Virus record (IMG/VR): IMGVR_UViG_3300032225_001322
Location: 1-64,000 of that record
Direction: 5' to 3' (one strand)
DNA: 64,000 nt
From: a virus
Lineage: Duplodnaviria; Caudoviricetes
Below are positions 9,193 through 51,995 of the stretch, one piece after another. Position 1 is the first letter of the stretch, and each line of letters begins with the position of its first letter. Below the pieces are notes generated by a model. The model searched no databases. It was given only the letters and a program-made list of their open reading frames with translations, and was not told the DNA's origin. Both the position numbers and the translations under genes were made by a program.

Positions 9193-9771
9193 TTATTTTT
9201 TGAAGTCGGATACAATATCACAAATGCCTAGTTTGAGTGCTTCTTCGGCAGATAGGTAAACATCTGAAGTTGGCAATAACTTTTTCATCACAGTAGCTCT
9301 TGTCATACCAGTAGTCTTCATATAATGATTGAGCATACGCTGTTGGATTAAAGTAAACTCTTTGGCTATGCTTATTAGTTCGTGATGTTTACCGTCTGAA
9401 CTACCTGAGTACTGATGACTCATAATAGAGGTATTTGGGGTTAACATTCTACGGCCTTTATGCCCTGCTAGGAATATCATTAAGCCCGCAGAGGCTATTA
9501 CACCCAGGCCCACGGTCTTAACTGGTATAGTGCTAGCACCTATGATGTCTATAAGAGCAAAAGCATCTTCTACCGAGCCGCCCTCGGAACATACTATTAG
9601 CAATAGTTCCTTTTTCTTCTTTTGGGTTACATGATTTTCGAGTAAGATCCACTCGATGATTGGTTTAATGCTTTCGTCCGAAACTTCATCCATTAGCACA
9701 TAGATACCCGAGTCTTGTAATATCTGCGAGGTATCGCGTTGATCAATTTCTGGGCTAGGTGCTAAGGGCAT
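9193..9771 (-). CDS. second, divergent ClpP-family protease
   Basis: SEGG, IASAG (Ser), MSHQ (His), SDVYLSAEEA...G..D. Confidence 0.88.
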   Translation of the reverse strand: MPLAPSPEIDQRDTSQILQDSGIYVLMDEVSDESIKPIIEWILLENHVTQKKKKELLLIVCSEGGSVEDAFALIDIIGASTIPVKTVGLGVIASAGLMIFLAGHKGRRMLTPNTSIMSHQYSGSSDGKHHELISIAKEFTLIQQRMLNHYMKTTGMTRATVMKKLLPTSDVYLSAEEALKLGICDIVSDFKK

Positions 9772-9862
9772 GTTCTCTCTACTTTTAATTAACTATGTAT
9801 ATTATTGTACTACAGATATTGAACAACAACAAGTATTTATGAGTAGATATATTACTGTTTGA

Positions 9863-10933
9863 TTAAGCTGAACACTGGTTTTTTGGCACTAGTTTTAGCT
9901 GAGTTTTGCTGGCTTGCTCCAAAGTAGTTGGCGTAGTTTTAAGTTGGATCGCTGTGTCCATAAATGCTTGACTGTTAACCCGGACATTAGATATGTTAGT
10001 TTTCGAAACATCTACAAAATAAGCGGATTGATTATAATCATCTATATGATCCAAGGCTGCCCAACGAAAGCATTGACGATGCATAACTTGATCCTGTTGT
10101 GTAAAAACAGTAAGTTCCACTTGTGGTTCGGATAATATCATAGTTTGGATTAATGCCGTAGCTTTAGCGGAATCCGAAAATCCCAATCGAGTACCTGCGA
10201 TATCTACTACCGATACATTACGGAAACAATTTGTCCAGCACCATGCATTGGTATTTTGGGCTGTGGCTTGATATGCTTCGGTCAACGAGTTTAAGTAATC
10301 TTTATTCCAACTTAACCTAAAGGGAATAGTTAGTATGCCGTTTCGATTATTATCAAATCGTACTTGCGAGGGTTTTAATTCTATTGTCATGCCGCGGCGA
10401 TAAAAGTCGTTGAGCACCACTCCAACTAATCTATCGCCTTGTTGTCGTTCATATTGGATAGAGGCCAAGTTAACACTGGCTTTGGCGCCATCTAAATCTC
10501 CAGCTACTCGATTTTCGTGTAATAGTCTATTTGCAATAATACTACGCTTGATCCAAACTTTCATTTGGGTCTTGTAACCAGTTTCAGCACTTACTTGATC
10601 TACAATAATAAACTTAGTGACATAACCCGAAGCATAGGATATTACTTCATCCCTGGCAATACGATTATTAACTACTTCGGTTTCAGATGCTATTATTGAT
10701 CCCACAGCTTGTTCTACTGCTAGCCTAAAACCATTTAGTTTAGATTCTTCGGCAGTTTTACCTACACCTACTACTTCGATATAGTAAACCTTTTCACCGC
10801 CAGAAAATAACCACTGCCCTGCTGTTAGTATTGTACTAATGGGTACCTGTAACAGCATGGCTGTGGTTATAACCTGGGCCTGACTGACTGTAACTAATAA
10901 AGCCAGGACTAGAGCTGTAATGAATCTTATCAT
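9863..10933 (-). CDS. secreted protein with LPP20-like N-terminal domain
   Basis: Signal peptide; G.G.T.E.....R.AVEQA.G..I.SET.V pattern. Confidence 0.6.
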   Translation of the reverse strand: MIRFITALVLALLVTVSQAQVITTAMLLQVPISTILTAGQWLFSGGEKVYYIEVVGVGKTAEESKLNGFRLAVEQAVGSIIASETEVVNNRIARDEVISYASGYVTKFIIVDQVSAETGYKTQMKVWIKRSIIANRLLHENRVAGDLDGAKASVNLASIQYERQQGDRLVGVVLNDFYRRGMTIELKPSQVRFDNNRNGILTIPFRLSWNKDYLNSLTEAYQATAQNTNAWCWTNCFRNVSVVDIAGTRLGFSDSAKATALIQTMILSEPQVELTVFTQQDQVMHRQCFRWAALDHIDDYNQSAYFVDVSKTNISNVRVNSQAFMDTAIQLKTTPTTLEQASKTQLKLVPKNQCSA

Positions 10934-11652
10934 TACATTGCCATCATACGGCCAACATCAAGACGGATTTCGTTGTTCTTTTTATCCCAGCGCATGACGA
11001 CCTTAACCGCTTTACCATCGTCGATTACGCTACCTTCTTTAAGATATAGACCCGACAAGATACCGCGATTAGTAGTGACAATGGTAGTACGCAATTTACT
11101 AGCAATTTTCATAGCATTGTTTCTAGTAGCCGTATTTTCTTCTGTATTGCCAGATGCCGCGGCTTTGACACGAGCGTCATCGTCTGCGGCCACTAAGTCA
11201 TCGGCGGTACCTGTGTTGCCTTCGGTTCTGCCTGGTTTGTTTGTAGAATAATTATTGCTATTATTATCCTGTGCGTGTTCCAAATTTTCTGAAATCATAA
11301 CAACAGATGTCTTACTAGCAATAGTTTCTTTATGGATAAAATCGTTTAAAGATTTTTTAGCTTCTAGTTCGGCTACACGGAATGCTTCACGAGCTGCATT
11401 ATGTGAGCCTCCCCATGTTGGAGCATAACCTGTGACTTCGATAGCTTCCATATTGCCACTTAGACTATAAATGATTCGAACACCTTGTTTCTTAAAATCG
11501 GATACCGCAAGTCGTTGATCCGCAATAGGAGTCGTAGCACTTGAGCCTGGTTCAATACCTGCGCCGCTGCTTAATTTGGACGGAACCGAACTACAGCCCA
11601 CCAAACCTACTAGCATACTACTCATTGCCAAAATTAAAATTCGTTGTTTCAT
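10933..11652 (-). CDS. lipoprotein (LPP20-like), likely start MKQRIL
   Basis: Lipobox LVGC; A.R.AEL.AK..L..FI pattern; sigma70 promoter at about 11687-11716. Confidence 0.7.
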   Translation of the reverse strand: MKQRILILAMSSMLVGLVGCSSVPSKLSSGAGIEPGSSATTPIADQRLAVSDFKKQGVRIIYSLSGNMEAIEVTGYAPTWGGSHNAAREAFRVAELEAKKSLNDFIHKETIASKTSVVMISENLEHAQDNNSNNYSTNKPGRTEGNTGTADDLVAADDDARVKAAASGNTEENTATRNNAMKIASKLRTTIVTTNRGILSGLYLKEGSVIDDGKAVKVVMRWDKKNNEIRLDVGRMMAM

Positions 11653-11730
11653 AATTAACCTCTTGATTGTGTTGTAACTATAAAACAGTATAGCTGATAT
11701 TGTAATTAAAGTCAATCGAAATATAGCCAA

Positions 11731-11755
11731 AAGAAAGCCCCTGTTACCAGGGGCC
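11731..11755 (-). terminator. intrinsic terminator after the phasin-like gene
   Basis: GCCCCTG-GTAA-CAGGGGC followed by TTTCTTTT. Confidence 0.7.
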
Positions 11756-11811: not shown

Positions 11812-12063
11812 TTACTTAACTAACTTAGCAAATTGGTTAGACAATTCTTCAGCTTGCTTGGATACAATAGAAGCAACAGAGTTGAATGCTTCTACTTGTG
11901 CGCGAGCAAAAGTACTAAAATCACCTGTTAAAGTAACCAAAGTCTTGCTGAGGTCTTTTGGTTCTACATAAGCCAAAACAGCCTGGGCATTCTTTTCAGC
12001 TTGGTCGATAAACTTAACTGGGTTCAATGCTTCTTTGATTGTATCAAATTTAAATGCGTTCAT
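11812..12063 (-). CDS. phasin-like (PHA granule-associated) amphipathic helical protein, start MNAFKF
   Basis: 83 aa, Ala/Gln/Lys-rich and predicted all-helical; strong SD; PhaR-like box upstream. Confidence 0.5.
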   Translation of the reverse strand: MNAFKFDTIKEALNPVKFIDQAEKNAQAVLAYVEPKDLSKTLVTLTGDFSTFARAQVEAFNSVASIVSKQAEELSNQFAKLVK

Positions 12064-12120
12064 GGTAAATCTCCTATAAATTAAGCGAGTTTTATTGCTA
12101 GCCCGAACCATTCGGCACTA
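12064..12120 (-). promoter_or_regulatory. ROSE-like RNA thermometer leader
   Basis: CUC(G)CU can pair with SD AGGAG leaving a bulged G; upstream hairpin UAGU(G)CCGAA-UGG-UUCGGGCUA. Confidence 0.6.
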
Positions 12121-12188
12121 ACTGTTCTCTACTTTACTTATCTAATTATATTGCGACCGCACATTTTTCGCAATCTTTTTGGTAGATT

Positions 12189-13576: not shown

Positions 13577-13705
13577 TGTGTGTCTCCTTTAGTAGTGTAG
13601 GAACTCATGGTTTCTACTGAGTATTTATGCTGTACCGCAATAATGATTATTAATACTTAATACCAAATATGATTTCATACTAAATATTCTACAAGGAGAT
13701 TTATT

Positions 13706-17517: not shown

Positions 17518-17718
17518 ATGGACAGAGCTAATATAAAATTACAACATTATGGGGATGCATTTAATACTACTTGGTACTGGACTGATGAGACCGGTAAAAC
17601 AATCTCACCATATATAAATGATTCAGATGTGGCCGAGCGCTGGGGTAAACTCTATTTACAAGCAGTAGCCGATAGCGTAGTCCGTGTCAACGGGGTTACT
17701 TATAACTCAAAAAAATAA
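17518..17718 (+). CDS. hypothetical protein
   Basis: TAATG coupling to a short upstream GTG-start ORF. Confidence 0.55.
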   Translation: MDRANIKLQHYGDAFNTTWYWTDETGKTISPYINDSDVAERWGKLYLQAVADSVVRVNGVTYNSKK

Positions 17719-17742
17719 ATACCTTTACAGCAAGGAGATCCT

Positions 17743-18403: not shown

Positions 18404-19192
18404 ATGAATTTCAACTTTGATTTAATTTCCGATATACACAGAGAAACCTGGCCTTCGTTTGATTGGGAGGGGCAACCTACATCACCTTACTGCATTGTAG
18501 CTGGCGATGTAGCAAGAGACCGCGCACTAGTAATTGATACCTTAGAAAGATTAAGTGATGTATATAACGGAGTATTTTATATAGATGGTAACGATGAGCA
18601 TAAAGACTATGCTGAAGAACTAGGTCGTAGTTACGCTGAACTACATGAACTTATTAGGCCCATGGGTAAAGTTGTTTTTTTACAAGATAATGTTGTTATT
18701 ATTAACGGTGTCGCTATTTTAGGAACCAATGGTTGGTGGAGTTATGATTTTGATCCCGATATGGAATTGGATCAATCTGTACAATGGGTAAAAGATAAAG
18801 ATAAAATTAGCGAGGCGGCCGCTATGAATATTAATGGTGTAGGGTATCACGATGTTGGCTACATGGTTAACGGCGTACAAAAATTACAAACACATAATGA
18901 TGTTAAAGCTATTATTATGGTTACTCACACAGTACCACATCCAGAACTTATACAACACGATTTAGAATTAATTCATACTTGGCGCTATAACTCCATGGGT
19001 AACAGTCACATGAGAAGTGTGTTAAGAGAAGATTCAGAATCTAAAATTAATACTTGGTGTTTTGGTCATTATCATAGACCGGTTGACACAGTAATTGACG
19101 GAATTAGATATGTAAGTAATCCTCGTGGCAGAGGTGACACTCCTTACTCGCAAATTGCTTATTATCCAAAAAGAATTACTATAGCTATTTAA
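18404..19192 (+). CDS. calcineurin-like metallophosphoesterase
   Basis: SDIH, AGD, GNDE (GNHE variant), THT.P and FGHYH motifs. Confidence 0.88.
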   Translation: MNFNFDLISDIHRETWPSFDWEGQPTSPYCIVAGDVARDRALVIDTLERLSDVYNGVFYIDGNDEHKDYAEELGRSYAELHELIRPMGKVVFLQDNVVIINGVAILGTNGWWSYDFDPDMELDQSVQWVKDKDKISEAAAMNINGVGYHDVGYMVNGVQKLQTHNDVKAIIMVTHTVPHPELIQHDLELIHTWRYNSMGNSHMRSVLREDSESKINTWCFGHYHRPVDTVIDGIRYVSNPRGRGDTPYSQIAYYPKRITIAI

Positions 19193-19497
19193 ACTGACTC
19201 GGGTTCTAGTTTAACTTGCAAAGGCATATTTACTGAACGAGCGCACAGAGTTACTTCGATGCCTTTTTGCTCAGCAATCTCATAAGGTAATACTGCTACC
19301 ACTGCTGATCCTGCTTCGTGGATGTCTTGTGTAATTTTTACAGCGGTATCTGTGCTGTAATCGAAAAAATTCATTAAAGTTTCAATAACAAATTCCATAG
19401 TTGTGCCGTTATCATTTAGATAGATAACTTTAAACATTGGCGGCTCTGTAAGCTCATTATTAACGTGTATTTGTGATACTACATCTGCGTGTGACAT
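19189..19497 (-). CDS. clpS: Clp protease adaptor ClpS (start MSHADV)
   Basis: P.MFKVI.LND..T.MEFV..., IH..G..VV...YEIAE.K. Confidence 0.92.
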   Translation of the reverse strand: MSHADVVSQIHVNNELTEPPMFKVIYLNDNGTTMEFVIETLMNFFDYSTDTAVKITQDIHEAGSAVVAVLPYEIAEQKGIEVTLCARSVNMPLQVKLEPESV

Positions 19498-19554
19498 TCT
19501 CAATCCTTTTGTAAGTAGGGGGCGAAATGCCCCCATACTGTATTTACTATTGTA

Positions 19555-20001
19555 TTACGATTCGTAAGTAATAGCAATAGACTTTGGCTTCATTGCTTCT
19601 GGTACTTTGCGTTCTAATTGAACACTTAGGATACCGTTTTTAGATGTCGCACTAATTACTTCAACATAATCAGCTAAACTAAAAGTACGCAAAAAATTAC
19701 GAGCACTAATACCTTTGTGAGCATATTCGTGGCCTTCGGGTAATTCTTTATCTAACTTTTCGCCTGATACAATTAAATTATTATCGCGAACTTCAACATT
19801 AACTTCCCCTTCGTTAAACCCAGCGATAGCTACTTGTACTTCAAAAGCTTCTTCACCGGTTTTAATAATGTTATAGGGTGGGTAATTTGTTGCGTCGTTA
19901 CCATGTTGATCGATTTGATTAACAATACGATTAAACAAATTATCAATGCCGATAGCATTGCGGTAAAATGGATTGAGATCCAAGGTTGTGATTTTTGTCA
20001 T
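19555..20001 (-). CDS. small heat-shock protein (Hsp20/IbpA-like)
   Basis: YPPYNI, AIAGF, HKGISARNF.R.F.L and NGIL...L...PE..KP..I.I. Confidence 0.95.
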   Translation of the reverse strand: MTKITTLDLNPFYRNAIGIDNLFNRIVNQIDQHGNDATNYPPYNIIKTGEEAFEVQVAIAGFNEGEVNVEVRDNNLIVSGEKLDKELPEGHEYAHKGISARNFLRTFSLADYVEVISATSKNGILSVQLERKVPEAMKPKSIAITYES

Positions 20002-20057
20002 ATTTTTCTCCTTTGTTTAGCAAGATGACATAGACGAACCCAAACTGCGGCATTCGT
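20002..20057 (-). promoter_or_regulatory. ROSE-type RNA thermometer in the hsp20 leader
   Basis: UCUU(G)CU pairs with AGGAGA; upstream hairpin ACGAAU(G)CC...GGGUUCGU. Confidence 0.75.
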
Positions 20058-20110
20058 ACAAGTATTTATTATACTACAAAATCATTATATACAAATATAA
20101 TTCGGAAAAA

Positions 20111-20332
20111 TTAATACATCTTTTTTGGAAGTTGCTGATCCCTGAGCTTTTTGCGCCAGCGAGCTTTTGCGGCACCCTTTTTACGCTTACGCTCGGTTGT
20201 TGGTTTTTCGTAAGTTTCGCGGGCACGAAGTTCATCAAGTAGGCCGGATTCTTGTACCTTTTTCTTGAACTTTCTAAGGGCTTTTTCTACATTGCCATCT
20301 TTAACCAATACGCTATTGCCGTAAAAACTCAT
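20111..20332 (-). CDS. rpsU: 30S ribosomal protein bS21
   Basis: [15 protein letters not shown]...G...ELR.RE.YEKPT..RKRKK.AA..R. Confidence 0.95.
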
Positions 20333-21519
20333 TCATTCTCCTGTGCGAGTGTTGTAGGAGTATTTACTAATTTAGATGTGATTGCAACTGTTGAAATACT
20401 TTGCTTACGATACCGGGGCAAATCGTACATGTGGGGCAATAATATACGCTCTAATTCGGAGTGTAATCCTCTGGCTCCGGTTTTAGTTTTAAGGGTACGC
20501 TCGGCTATGAGATTTAACGATTCGTCCTCAAATGACAATTCTACACCATCTTGATTAAATAACCATTGATATTGTTCCACAAAATTATGTTTAACTTCGG
20601 TTAAAATACTAATAAGTTGATCTTTAGTCAATCCATGTAAACTTACTGATGAACTAAACCGACCTACAAATTCAGGAATCATTCCATACTTAACTAAATC
20701 ATCAGGAGACACAGTTTCATAATCTACTATAGCATCTGTAGTAAGTTGGGCACCAAATCCCATGGCTGTTCCTTGTATGCGATTTTTAACAATCTTTTCA
20801 AGTCCAACAAATGCCCCGCCTGCTATGAATAAAATATTTGTAGTGTCGATTTCTACACTAGCATCAGATTTTCTGCCACCTGCAGGGTTGATCTTAATTT
20901 TAGTGCCTTCAACTAATTTAAGTAAGGCTTGTTGTACGCCTTCGCCAGAAACATCTCGACTCACAGTAGCACTTTCACTTTTTCGAGCGATTTTATCAAT
21001 TTCATCTAGGAATATAATGCCCCTTTGTGTGCGTTCTATATCGTTATCGGCATTTTGATATAAGCGAGTTATTACAGAATCGACATCGTCACCAACATAT
21101 CCTGCTTCGGTTAATGTAGTAGCATCAGCCACAGCAAACGGAACATTTAAATATTCAGCTACAGTTTTAGCTAATAATGTTTTACCAGTACCAGTAGGTC
21201 CAATCATGAGTATGTTTGATTTGACTACTTCGTTTTCAGGACTACTAATTCGTTTATAGTGATTAGTAATAGCAACAGCTAAAACTATTTTAGCTTCTTG
21301 TTGCCCTACTACATATTCATCTAGATATTCTTTGATGTCTCGAGGATCCGGAATATCTATTGCTGATGATTGCTTAGTATTAGTCTTTTTATTTTTTATT
21401 AATTTGTCACACAACTCCACGCATTCGCTACATATTGCGACTTCGTGACCTACTATTAATCTACTAACAGAACTTTTGTGTTTGCCGCAAAAAGAACAGT
21501 TATCAATTTTTTCTGGCAT
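20329..21519 (-). CDS. clpX: Clp protease ATP-binding subunit ClpX
   Basis: CSFCGK...ICSEC zinc domain, [37 protein letters not shown] loop, TGARGL. Confidence 0.97.
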
Positions 21520-51925: not shown

Positions 51926-51995
51926 ACATATTATTTAGCGATATTTAACGATATATTTTTATACCATAAATATTCCAAATGATAACTATTATTAG

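Follow-up and report, generated by a model that had tools for sequence, protein, structure and literature searches.

ROSE-like RNA thermometers are recognized by three features: they have two to four hairpins, the last of these contains a U(U/C)GCU motif in imperfect pairing with the Shine-Dalgarno (SD) sequence, and a G is bulged (PMC3669281; PMC11182007). The ibpA thermometers of Pseudomonas represent the short form with two hairpins, in which rising temperature melts hairpin II but leaves hairpin I folded (PMC3669281). In Escherichia coli, IbpA, which is a small heat shock protein (sHsp), binds the ROSE-type 5' untranslated region (UTR) of its own mRNA, and Arg93 is needed for this binding (PMC10474464). 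RNA thermometers have rarely been documented in phages: the structures of lambda cIII and SPbeta blyA were counted as the first two in a 2024 paper (PMC11182007), and our literature searches turned up no account of a ROSE-type element encoded by a phage. Here we describe two leaders of this kind in a 64-kb stretch of viral DNA (Duplodnaviria; Caudoviricetes), hereafter called the window, which is the first part of the 152-kb IMG/VR virus record IMGVR_UViG_3300032225_001322 (completeness estimate 43%). One leader precedes an hsp20 gene, the other a gene coding for a protein of 83 amino acids (aa). We consider it probable that these leaders are divergent, short two-hairpin ROSE-like translational control elements, which form a phage proteostasis regulon.

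Results

Structure of the Two Leaders

The original prediction, made from the letters of the window, held that a "phasin-like" gene, our 83-aa gene, carries the same ROSE-type two-hairpin leader as hsp20. Both genes lie on the minus strand, and the sequences of the two leaders are exactly those given there (Table 1). Minimum free energy (MFE) folds calculated with ViennaRNA recovered all four hairpins, each with its bulged G, and the centroid folds of both leaders also contain two hairpins. The leader of the 83-aa gene is about 75 nt long and has the SD AGGAG at positions 12075-12071. Its hairpin I is made up of a 6-bp lower stem ending in a U.G pair, the bulged G12116 and a CCGAA/UUCGG upper stem, while in hairpin II the anti-SD CUC(G)CU (12089-12084, with G12086 bulged) pairs with the SD and outer A-U pairs lengthen the stem. 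In the hsp20 leader, it is UCUU(G)CU (20025-20019, with G20021 bulged) and AGGAGA (20012-20007) that pair in hairpin II, and an outer helix UGUCA/UGACA takes in the start codon. Both leaders possess the sequence and structure of ROSE-like elements, namely two hairpins, U(U/C)GCU paired to the SD, and a bulged G. As to their position in the 5' UTR of an sHsp gene, the hsp20 leader ends at the AUG of a gene recognized by Pfam HSP20, and the other leader precedes a gene without known heat-shock identity.

A permissive scan with the Rfam family ROSE_3 (RF02523) aligned its full length to both leaders and, in the whole 152-kb record, to these two sites only. The scores were 24.7 and 18.3 bits, so that the predicted membership in ROSE was borne out as to the alignment of both leaders and fell short as to the gathering cut-off of 43 bits. 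The ROSE_3 consensus of hairpin I (UGCCGAAgUCGGG after the bulged G) almost equals the phage sequence UGCCGAUGGUCGGG, and that of hairpin II, ACUcGCU...AGgAG...AccAUG, is nearly that of the leader of the 83-aa gene.

The accessibility of the SD was compared over the 28 genes of the window with a recognizable SD. At 20 °C the predicted probability of an unpaired SD had a median of 0.43, as compared to 0.20 for hsp20 and about 0.03 for the 83-aa gene. Between 5 and 42 °C, the same quantity rose in silico from 0.01 to 0.11 in the leader of the 83-aa gene, from 0.11 to 0.39 in that of hsp20 and, most steeply, from 0.02 to 0.63 in the leader of a dnaK gene from a related phage. When the bulged G of hairpin II (G12086 or G20021) was deleted in silico, the helix was predicted to remain closed throughout 15-42 °C.

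Conservation and Covariation of the Leaders

Relatives of the 83-aa gene were collected from 8 viral and 62 metagenomic loci, mostly from freshwater-lake samples, and yielded 49 distinct leaders; 34 distinct hsp20 leaders came from 61 viral loci with relatives of Hsp20. A script identified the architecture of hairpin I in all of them (49/49 and 34/34). The common plan begins with a lower stem of 5-11 pairs, whose sequence varies widely; a Y.G (or C-G) pair closes it, and the bulged G and a CC...GG core follow. In the leaders of the 83-aa gene taken alone, 98.2% of the cells of hairpin I are paired and five of its 11 pairs have changed on both sides, a level of covariation that none of 500 shuffles reached. 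Since a MAFFT alignment of the leaders of both genes put the 3' arm of hairpin I in the wrong place, a model-based alignment was used for the mixed set; there, 98.6% of the cells are paired, 7 pairs have changed on both sides and up to 6 pair types occur at a position.

The pairing of a UYGCU motif with the SD is also kept in most of the homologues. Among the 49 leaders of the 83-aa gene, 38 retain the CUC(G)CU:AGGAG pairing, and most of the 34 hsp20 leaders have a CUUGCU-type motif. In the other 11 leaders of the 83-aa gene the SD is still paired: an anti-SD AAAUU(G)UCC pairs with GGAGAUUU in another register, again with a bulged G. The outer helix of the hsp20 leader is UGUCA/UGACA in most cases and UUAGUC/GACUAA in two related loci (L025 and L026), so that both strands of the helix covary.

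Copies of the Leader in Related Phages

Two covariance models were constructed, R1 from the leaders of the 83-aa gene and R2 from the mixed alignment. In the record that contains the window, R2 matched only the two leaders (70 and 44.9 bits). In five related phage records, among them a complete genome of 344 kb with terminal repeats (G001), it matched exactly three sites each: one before the 83-aa gene, one before hsp20 and a third located upstream of hsp20 at a distance of about 2 kb. This third copy is followed in three of the five by a gene for a DnaK of 633 residues; in the other two, and at a further locus (L024), it is followed by an open reading frame (ORF) of 8 codons. To judge by its DNA, this short ORF resembles a dnaK 5' end that has decayed (Table 1). 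In G001, the only record examined downstream, it is followed by a separate promoter, TTGACA-17-TACAAT, and by groES-groEL. The 8-codon ORF could be either a remnant or a functional upstream ORF. The mini-regulon of the original prediction is in this way recognizable as a small set of genes marked by homologous leaders, two here and three in the relatives, while the signal that it proposed, temperature or an RNA-binding sHsp, is considered in the Discussion.

We found no HSP70 gene in the record of the window. The promoter and hairpin I of the window's hsp20 are orthologous to the promoter and hairpin I of the relatives' dnaK, and hairpin II is of the hsp20 type. The simplest reading is that dnaK was deleted in this lineage through recombination between the two leader copies, which would have left a hybrid leader.

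As a control, R2 was run on the validated thermometers of E. coli, which it placed correctly, with 23.9 bits for ibpB and 14.6 bits for ibpA. The same model matched the hsp20 leaders of several isolated phages (Table 1). In the T4-like marine phages among these (L240, L242, and L243), the leader contains CU(C/U)GCU...AGGAG and a hairpin I with bulged G. To our knowledge, ROSE elements have not been described in cyanobacterial hosts. On account of the R2 matches in isolated phages, a leader that by its sequence is of ROSE type is widespread before phage hsp20; the clade studied here is peculiar in that dnaK and the 83-aa gene have come to carry it as well.

Among bacteria, the sHsps most similar to the phage protein are alphaproteobacterial, with 40-50% identity, and their loci are mostly without the phage-type leader. 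Two contigs of metagenome-assembled genomes, L160 (5.4 kb, labelled Polynucleobacter) and L159 (labelled Haliscomenobacter), carry the full phage-type leader, with 56.7 and 55.9 bits, ahead of an hsp20 that is 49-51% identical to the phage gene. Most likely, both contigs are phage DNA that was assigned to a bacterial bin, and they perhaps give a hint at the host.

The 83-aa Protein

The 83-aa protein is, according to structure prediction, a conserved all-helical hairpin. Its family is narrow, though rich in members: between 312 and 542 close relatives were found in a large collection, and none of them has been named or assigned to Pfam. When 1.84 billion representatives were searched with a profile, 15 clusters only were returned, all of about 80 aa, and a profile search of the large collection listed only close, unannotated relatives. 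No homologue was detected by tblastn in GenBank phage genomes, no match in PHROG and nothing significant in profile searches of the PDB. Scans of viral contigs with the distant family members P0129 and P0133 gave no match, and the alignment of the most distant members was too divergent to serve as a scan query. AlphaFold2, when run on 21 close sequences, gave a poor model (predicted local distance difference test, pLDDT, of 54); a more diverse alignment raised the pLDDT to 84 and yielded a helical hairpin with helices at residues 3-12, 15-30, and 36-82.

With regard to the phasin-like label of the original prediction, the all-helical character of the protein agrees with it, and a few weak pointers lead in the same direction. 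Pfam Phasin_2 (PF09361) scored 17.5 bits, below its cut-off of 24.9, and matched at E ≤ 1 in 5 of 21 relatives (best E 0.0018) with inconsistent registers. In the ESM Atlas the nearest named clusters, at 0.82-0.84, are related to polyhydroxyalkanoate (PHA), a similarity that the search tool rates as a lead only. The PhaP structure 5ip0_A was retrieved with Z 6.4 and, over 75 residues, a root-mean-square deviation of 3.2; it stood at rank 17, level with many unrelated helical hairpins, and Foldseek found nothing in the PDB at E ≤ 0.001. A viral structural neighbour carries the name 'Phasin' (TM 0.74/0.82, E 0.15). No PHA gene was noticed near the 83-aa gene in the window, although a genome-wide search for PHA genes was not made. 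The sHsps IbpA and IbpB act like phasins on polyhydroxybutyrate granules (PMC10646324); for the 83-aa protein, this analogy offers an attractive hypothesis and not evidence. Identity as a phasin is possible but unproven.

Gene Neighbourhood and Transcription Signals

Judging from its signals, the 83-aa gene is a self-contained monocistronic unit, with promoter-like and terminator-like sequences of its own (Table 1). Its relatives keep the arrangement TTGCR...TATAAT/TATACT. Two inverted repeats, TTGCGA...TCGCAA and TGCGGTCGCA, overlap this promoter; in relatives, palindromes resembling TTGCAnTGCAA occupy the corresponding position, which may be an operator. The gene at 10933-11730 (minus strand), downstream of the 83-aa gene, codes for a product without a Pfam family that begins with a lipoprotein-like signal (…GCSS); such a gene lies downstream of the 83-aa gene also in at least one relative (L136). 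The region had no match among GenBank phages by megablast.

The hsp20 gene follows those of ribosomal protein S21 and ClpX and precedes that of ClpS. ClpX, ClpS, ClpP, and Hsp20 make up a proteostasis neighbourhood, which we count in favour of a proteostasis regulon.

The heptamer ATAAATA occurs in 10 copies in the window, as compared to about 33 expected, and at least 10 matches were present in 100 of 100 shuffles. Besides the copy ahead of the hsp20 leader (Table 1), examples are found at 9834-9840 and 13622-13628 on the minus strand and at 17715-17721 and 51966-51972 on the plus strand. Several of the copies inspected lie just 5' of gene starts, on the coding strand, and the motif looks like a T4-late-type phage promoter (TATAAATA). 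In most relatives of the 83-aa gene the spacing between ATAAATA and hairpin I is the same.

Table 1. Positions of the leaders, genes and signals in the window and in related loci, with R2 scores of hsp20 leaders from isolated phages.
Feature	Position	Strand	Details and basis
83-aa gene	11812-12063	-	AUG at 12063, 83 codons, ORF end at 11812; ORF and SD spacing
Leader of 83-aa gene	12122-12061	-	Two hairpins
Hairpin I, 83-aa gene	12097-12122	-	GUUAGU(G)CCGAA-UGG-UUCGG-GCUAGC; MFE folds
Hairpin II, 83-aa gene	12066-12094	-	CUC(G)CU-uaauuuau-AGGAG at 12089-12071; MFE folds, ROSE_3 alignment
Sigma-70-like promoter of 83-aa gene, TTGCGA-17-TATAAT	12145-12173	-	Promoter scan, 10/12 matches
ATAAGTA	12135-12141	-	1 mismatch to the ATAAATA found here in most relatives; possibly a T4-late-type promoter
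Intrinsic-terminator-like hairpin	11736-11755	-	Terminator scan: 8-bp stem with 6 GC pairs, then U-run
hsp20 gene	19555-20001	-	148 aa, IbpA-like sHsp; Pfam HSP20 8.9e-19, PHROG 432
hsp20 leader	20057-19999	-	Two hairpins
Hairpin I, hsp20	20034-20057	-	ACGAAU(G)CC...GG-GUUCGU, bulged G20051; MFE fold
Hairpin II, hsp20	19996-20030	-	UCUU(G)CU-aaacaa-AGGAGA at 20025-20007, AUG 20001; MFE fold
ATAAATA upstream of hsp20 leader	20063-20069	-	Inside the promoter region orthologous to the relatives' dnaK promoter
ClpP gene	9193-9771	-	Proteostasis gene
ClpS gene	19189-19536	-	Proteostasis neighbourhood
Ribosomal protein S21 gene	20111-20332	-	Proteostasis neighbourhood
ClpX gene	20329-21519	-	Proteostasis neighbourhood
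Region compared with dnaK loci of relatives	19996-20140	-	Against L025:905-1048 and L026:896-1039
8-codon ORF, MSK(H/Q)(T/P)(Y/F)LT*	L154:1501-2000 (G001); L024:786-870; L152		DNA resembles a frameshifted dnaK 5' end
hsp20 leader, Methylophilales phage Melnitz			R2 52.3 bits; locus L240
hsp20 leader, Sinorhizobium phage Phosso			R2 29.2 bits
hsp20 leader, Pelagibacter phage HTVC115P			R2 27.4 bits
hsp20 leader, Phage C48C1			R2 25.2 bits
hsp20 leader, Cyanophage S-RIM4			R2 21.1 bits; locus L243
hsp20 leader, Pelagibacter phage HTVC008M			R2 18.1 bits; locus L242

Discussion

The best-supported mechanism, as modelled from the predicted structures, is translational repression by occlusion of the SD, which would be relieved when hairpin II opens. 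Hairpin II would hold the SD in a weak and imperfect helix, formed with a U(U/C)GCU-type anti-SD that contains a bulged G, and translation would stay low until this helix opens. Hairpin I may serve as a stable 5' helix, whose invariant Y.G pair, bulged G and CC/GG core would aid folding or mRNA stability, or provide a protein-binding site. With copies of the element before chaperone genes and the 83-aa gene, a single post-transcriptional proteostasis regulon would arise, induced by warming and possibly also by titration of the phage Hsp20 onto misfolded protein. The hsp20 gene, the 83-aa gene and, in the relatives, dnaK are probably switched on together. In vivo, we infer, the SD is occluded and then exposed in response to temperature or under the control of the IbpA-like phage Hsp20.

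Several observations weigh against this interpretation. In the window no Rfam family, including ROSE, ROSE_2, and ROSE_3, passes its gathering threshold. The folding energies of the leaders are ordinary with respect to shuffled sequences (z of -0.84 and +0.32); what sets the leaders beyond chance is the comparative evidence, that is, model matches and compensatory changes, since folding energy does not discriminate. The mixed alignment was fitted to the model and is biased toward pairing, and hairpin II is nearly invariant within each class, so that it gives little covariation support of its own. The predicted occlusion of the SD is strong but not unique, because two unrelated genes of the window have an equally low predicted accessibility, and the SD of the 83-aa leader is still about 90% paired at 42 °C in silico. 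Finally, the lakes from which these phages derive are temperate or cold, and classical heat shock is uncommon there. Because lake phages seldom meet heat shock, the sensing of misfolded protein may matter more for them than the sensing of temperature.

This last point bears on a possible, though clearly less probable, alternative, namely that the leaders are mainly operators for the IbpA-like phage Hsp20 and not thermometers, and would work as sensors of aggregation and not of temperature. Free Hsp20 would block the translation of hsp20, dnaK, and the 83-aa gene, and protein misfolded during infection would release all three. There are precedents, because the IbpA proteins of E. coli and other gamma-proteobacteria repress their own translation through a ROSE-type 5' UTR. 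The phage Hsp20 is 41% identical to E. coli IbpA, and its R101 aligns with IbpA R93, a residue that is invariant in all phage proteins aligned and is replaced by Q in IbpB. The equivalent of IbpA R97 is R105 in the window's Hsp20 and K in one relative, so that all phage proteins aligned have R or K there. For these reasons, that is, since the phage Hsp20 is IbpA-like and the equivalent of Arg93 is kept, the RNA-binding sHsp suggested in the original prediction is a reasonable idea at the level of sequence comparison. In addition, the core of hairpin I (Y.G, bulged G, and CC/GG) is invariant in 83 of 83 leaders; the corresponding hairpin of Pseudomonas does not melt with temperature (PMC3669281), so that hairpin I of the phage leaders could be a recognition site; and the sources of the samples indicate hosts from cool lakes. 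However, at the position of IbpA K98 the phage proteins carry T, S, E, or Q, and Arg93 is common anyway in alpha- and gamma-proteobacterial IbpAs (PMC10474464). Moreover, an operator does not exclude a thermometer, given that both act on one UTR in E. coli. By analogy, repression by the sHsp may be a second mechanism, compatible with the thermometer.

A bolder scenario, which we regard as speculative and rather unlikely, is that these jumbo phages have an aggregation-sensing circuit of their own, based on Hsp20 acting on the shared leaders, and that in the 83-aa protein they possess a new, phage-specific factor, either a holdase or a phasin-like coating factor. Hsp20 would then keep hsp20, dnaK, and the 83-aa gene repressed until it is titrated by misfolded protein, and the 83-aa protein would work with Hsp20 and DnaK during the mass production of virion proteins.

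It is improbable that the leaders are mRNA-stabilizing 5' hairpins joined to a strong ribosome-binding site, with an incidental anti-SD pairing and no regulation. It is true that 5' stem-loops stabilize mRNAs, as was proposed for hairpin I of Pseudomonas (PMC3669281), that the folding energies are ordinary, and that the AGGAGAUUUACCAUG stretch is almost invariant, as would be found in a tuned strong initiation region. On the other hand, the U(U/C)GCU anti-SD and its bulged G are kept in more than 80 leaders of three genes, and where this anti-SD has been replaced, the substitute is another anti-SD with a bulged G. In the hsp20 leaders the start codon is paired as well, with covariation, and the model detects thermometers that were validated experimentally. 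The idea that the likeness of the leaders is a matter of chance in an AT-rich genome, for which the commonness of short weak hairpins and the unremarkable shuffle scores could be cited, is refuted by the extensive compensatory changes, by models that match these two sites only in 152 kb, and by sets of exactly three copies in the related genomes.

ROSE-like translational control, our preferred reading, has implications beyond the window. The ROSE-type hsp20 leader recurs in isolated phages of OM43, SAR11, Synechococcus, and Sinorhizobium, and in one jumbo-phage clade it marks two to three genes. From this breadth it seems that phages adjust translationally how much chaperone of their own is made, in response to temperature or protein-folding stress. 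For a widespread, unannotated phage protein of 83 aa, the shared leader also offers a first hint of function, since the protein would be controlled together with Hsp20 and DnaK.

Among the described systems, the ibpA thermometer of Pseudomonas (Krajewski et al. 2013, PMC3669281) is closest to the phage leaders. Both comprise two hairpins within about 60 nt, with a gene for an IbpA-type sHsp downstream; in both the Pseudomonas element (ROSE_3) and the phage leaders, hairpin I has a bulged G before a CC(G)...(C)GG upper stem, and in hairpin II the SD is paired to U(U/C)GCU, from which a G bulges out. In contrast to the bacterial element, the phage leaders are AT-rich, with shorter stems and without G-C clamps around the SD core, and they score below the Rfam threshold. 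They are phage-encoded, occur in two to three copies per genome, also before dnaK and the 83-aa gene, and include a subclass with UU(G)UCC in place of U(U/C)GCU. The E. coli ibpA/ibpB system (PMC10474464; PMC10410725) is similar in that one sHsp is associated with several mRNAs that share a ROSE-type leader, although its UTRs are longer and have three to four hairpins (PMC3669281). The partner genes are ibpB and rpoH in E. coli and dnaK and the 83-aa gene in the phages, where the binding of Hsp20 is only putative.

The two thermometers counted so far in phages, lambda cIII and SPbeta blyA, are phage-encoded mRNA structures like the leaders described here, and they sense temperature, as the latter are inferred to do. 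Those are single, unrelated structures on lysis or lysogeny genes, whereas here a ROSE-type family stands before chaperone genes in many aquatic phages. A ROSE-like thermometer on a gene that does not code for a chaperone is found in rhlA of P. aeruginosa, which, like the 83-aa gene, bears a ROSE-type SD-occluding hairpin on a non-sHsp gene; rhlA differs in gene class and organism and is not part of a multi-copy set with chaperone genes. As regards the protein, phasins such as PhaP (5IP0) are small and all-helical, as is predicted for the 83-aa protein, but the latter lacks a match above the curated threshold, its Pfam registers are inconsistent, and its structural match is tied with generic helical hairpins. 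The element, in conclusion, is a divergent phage-borne RNA switch of ROSE type, and so of a known class, whose use on several genes is unusual.

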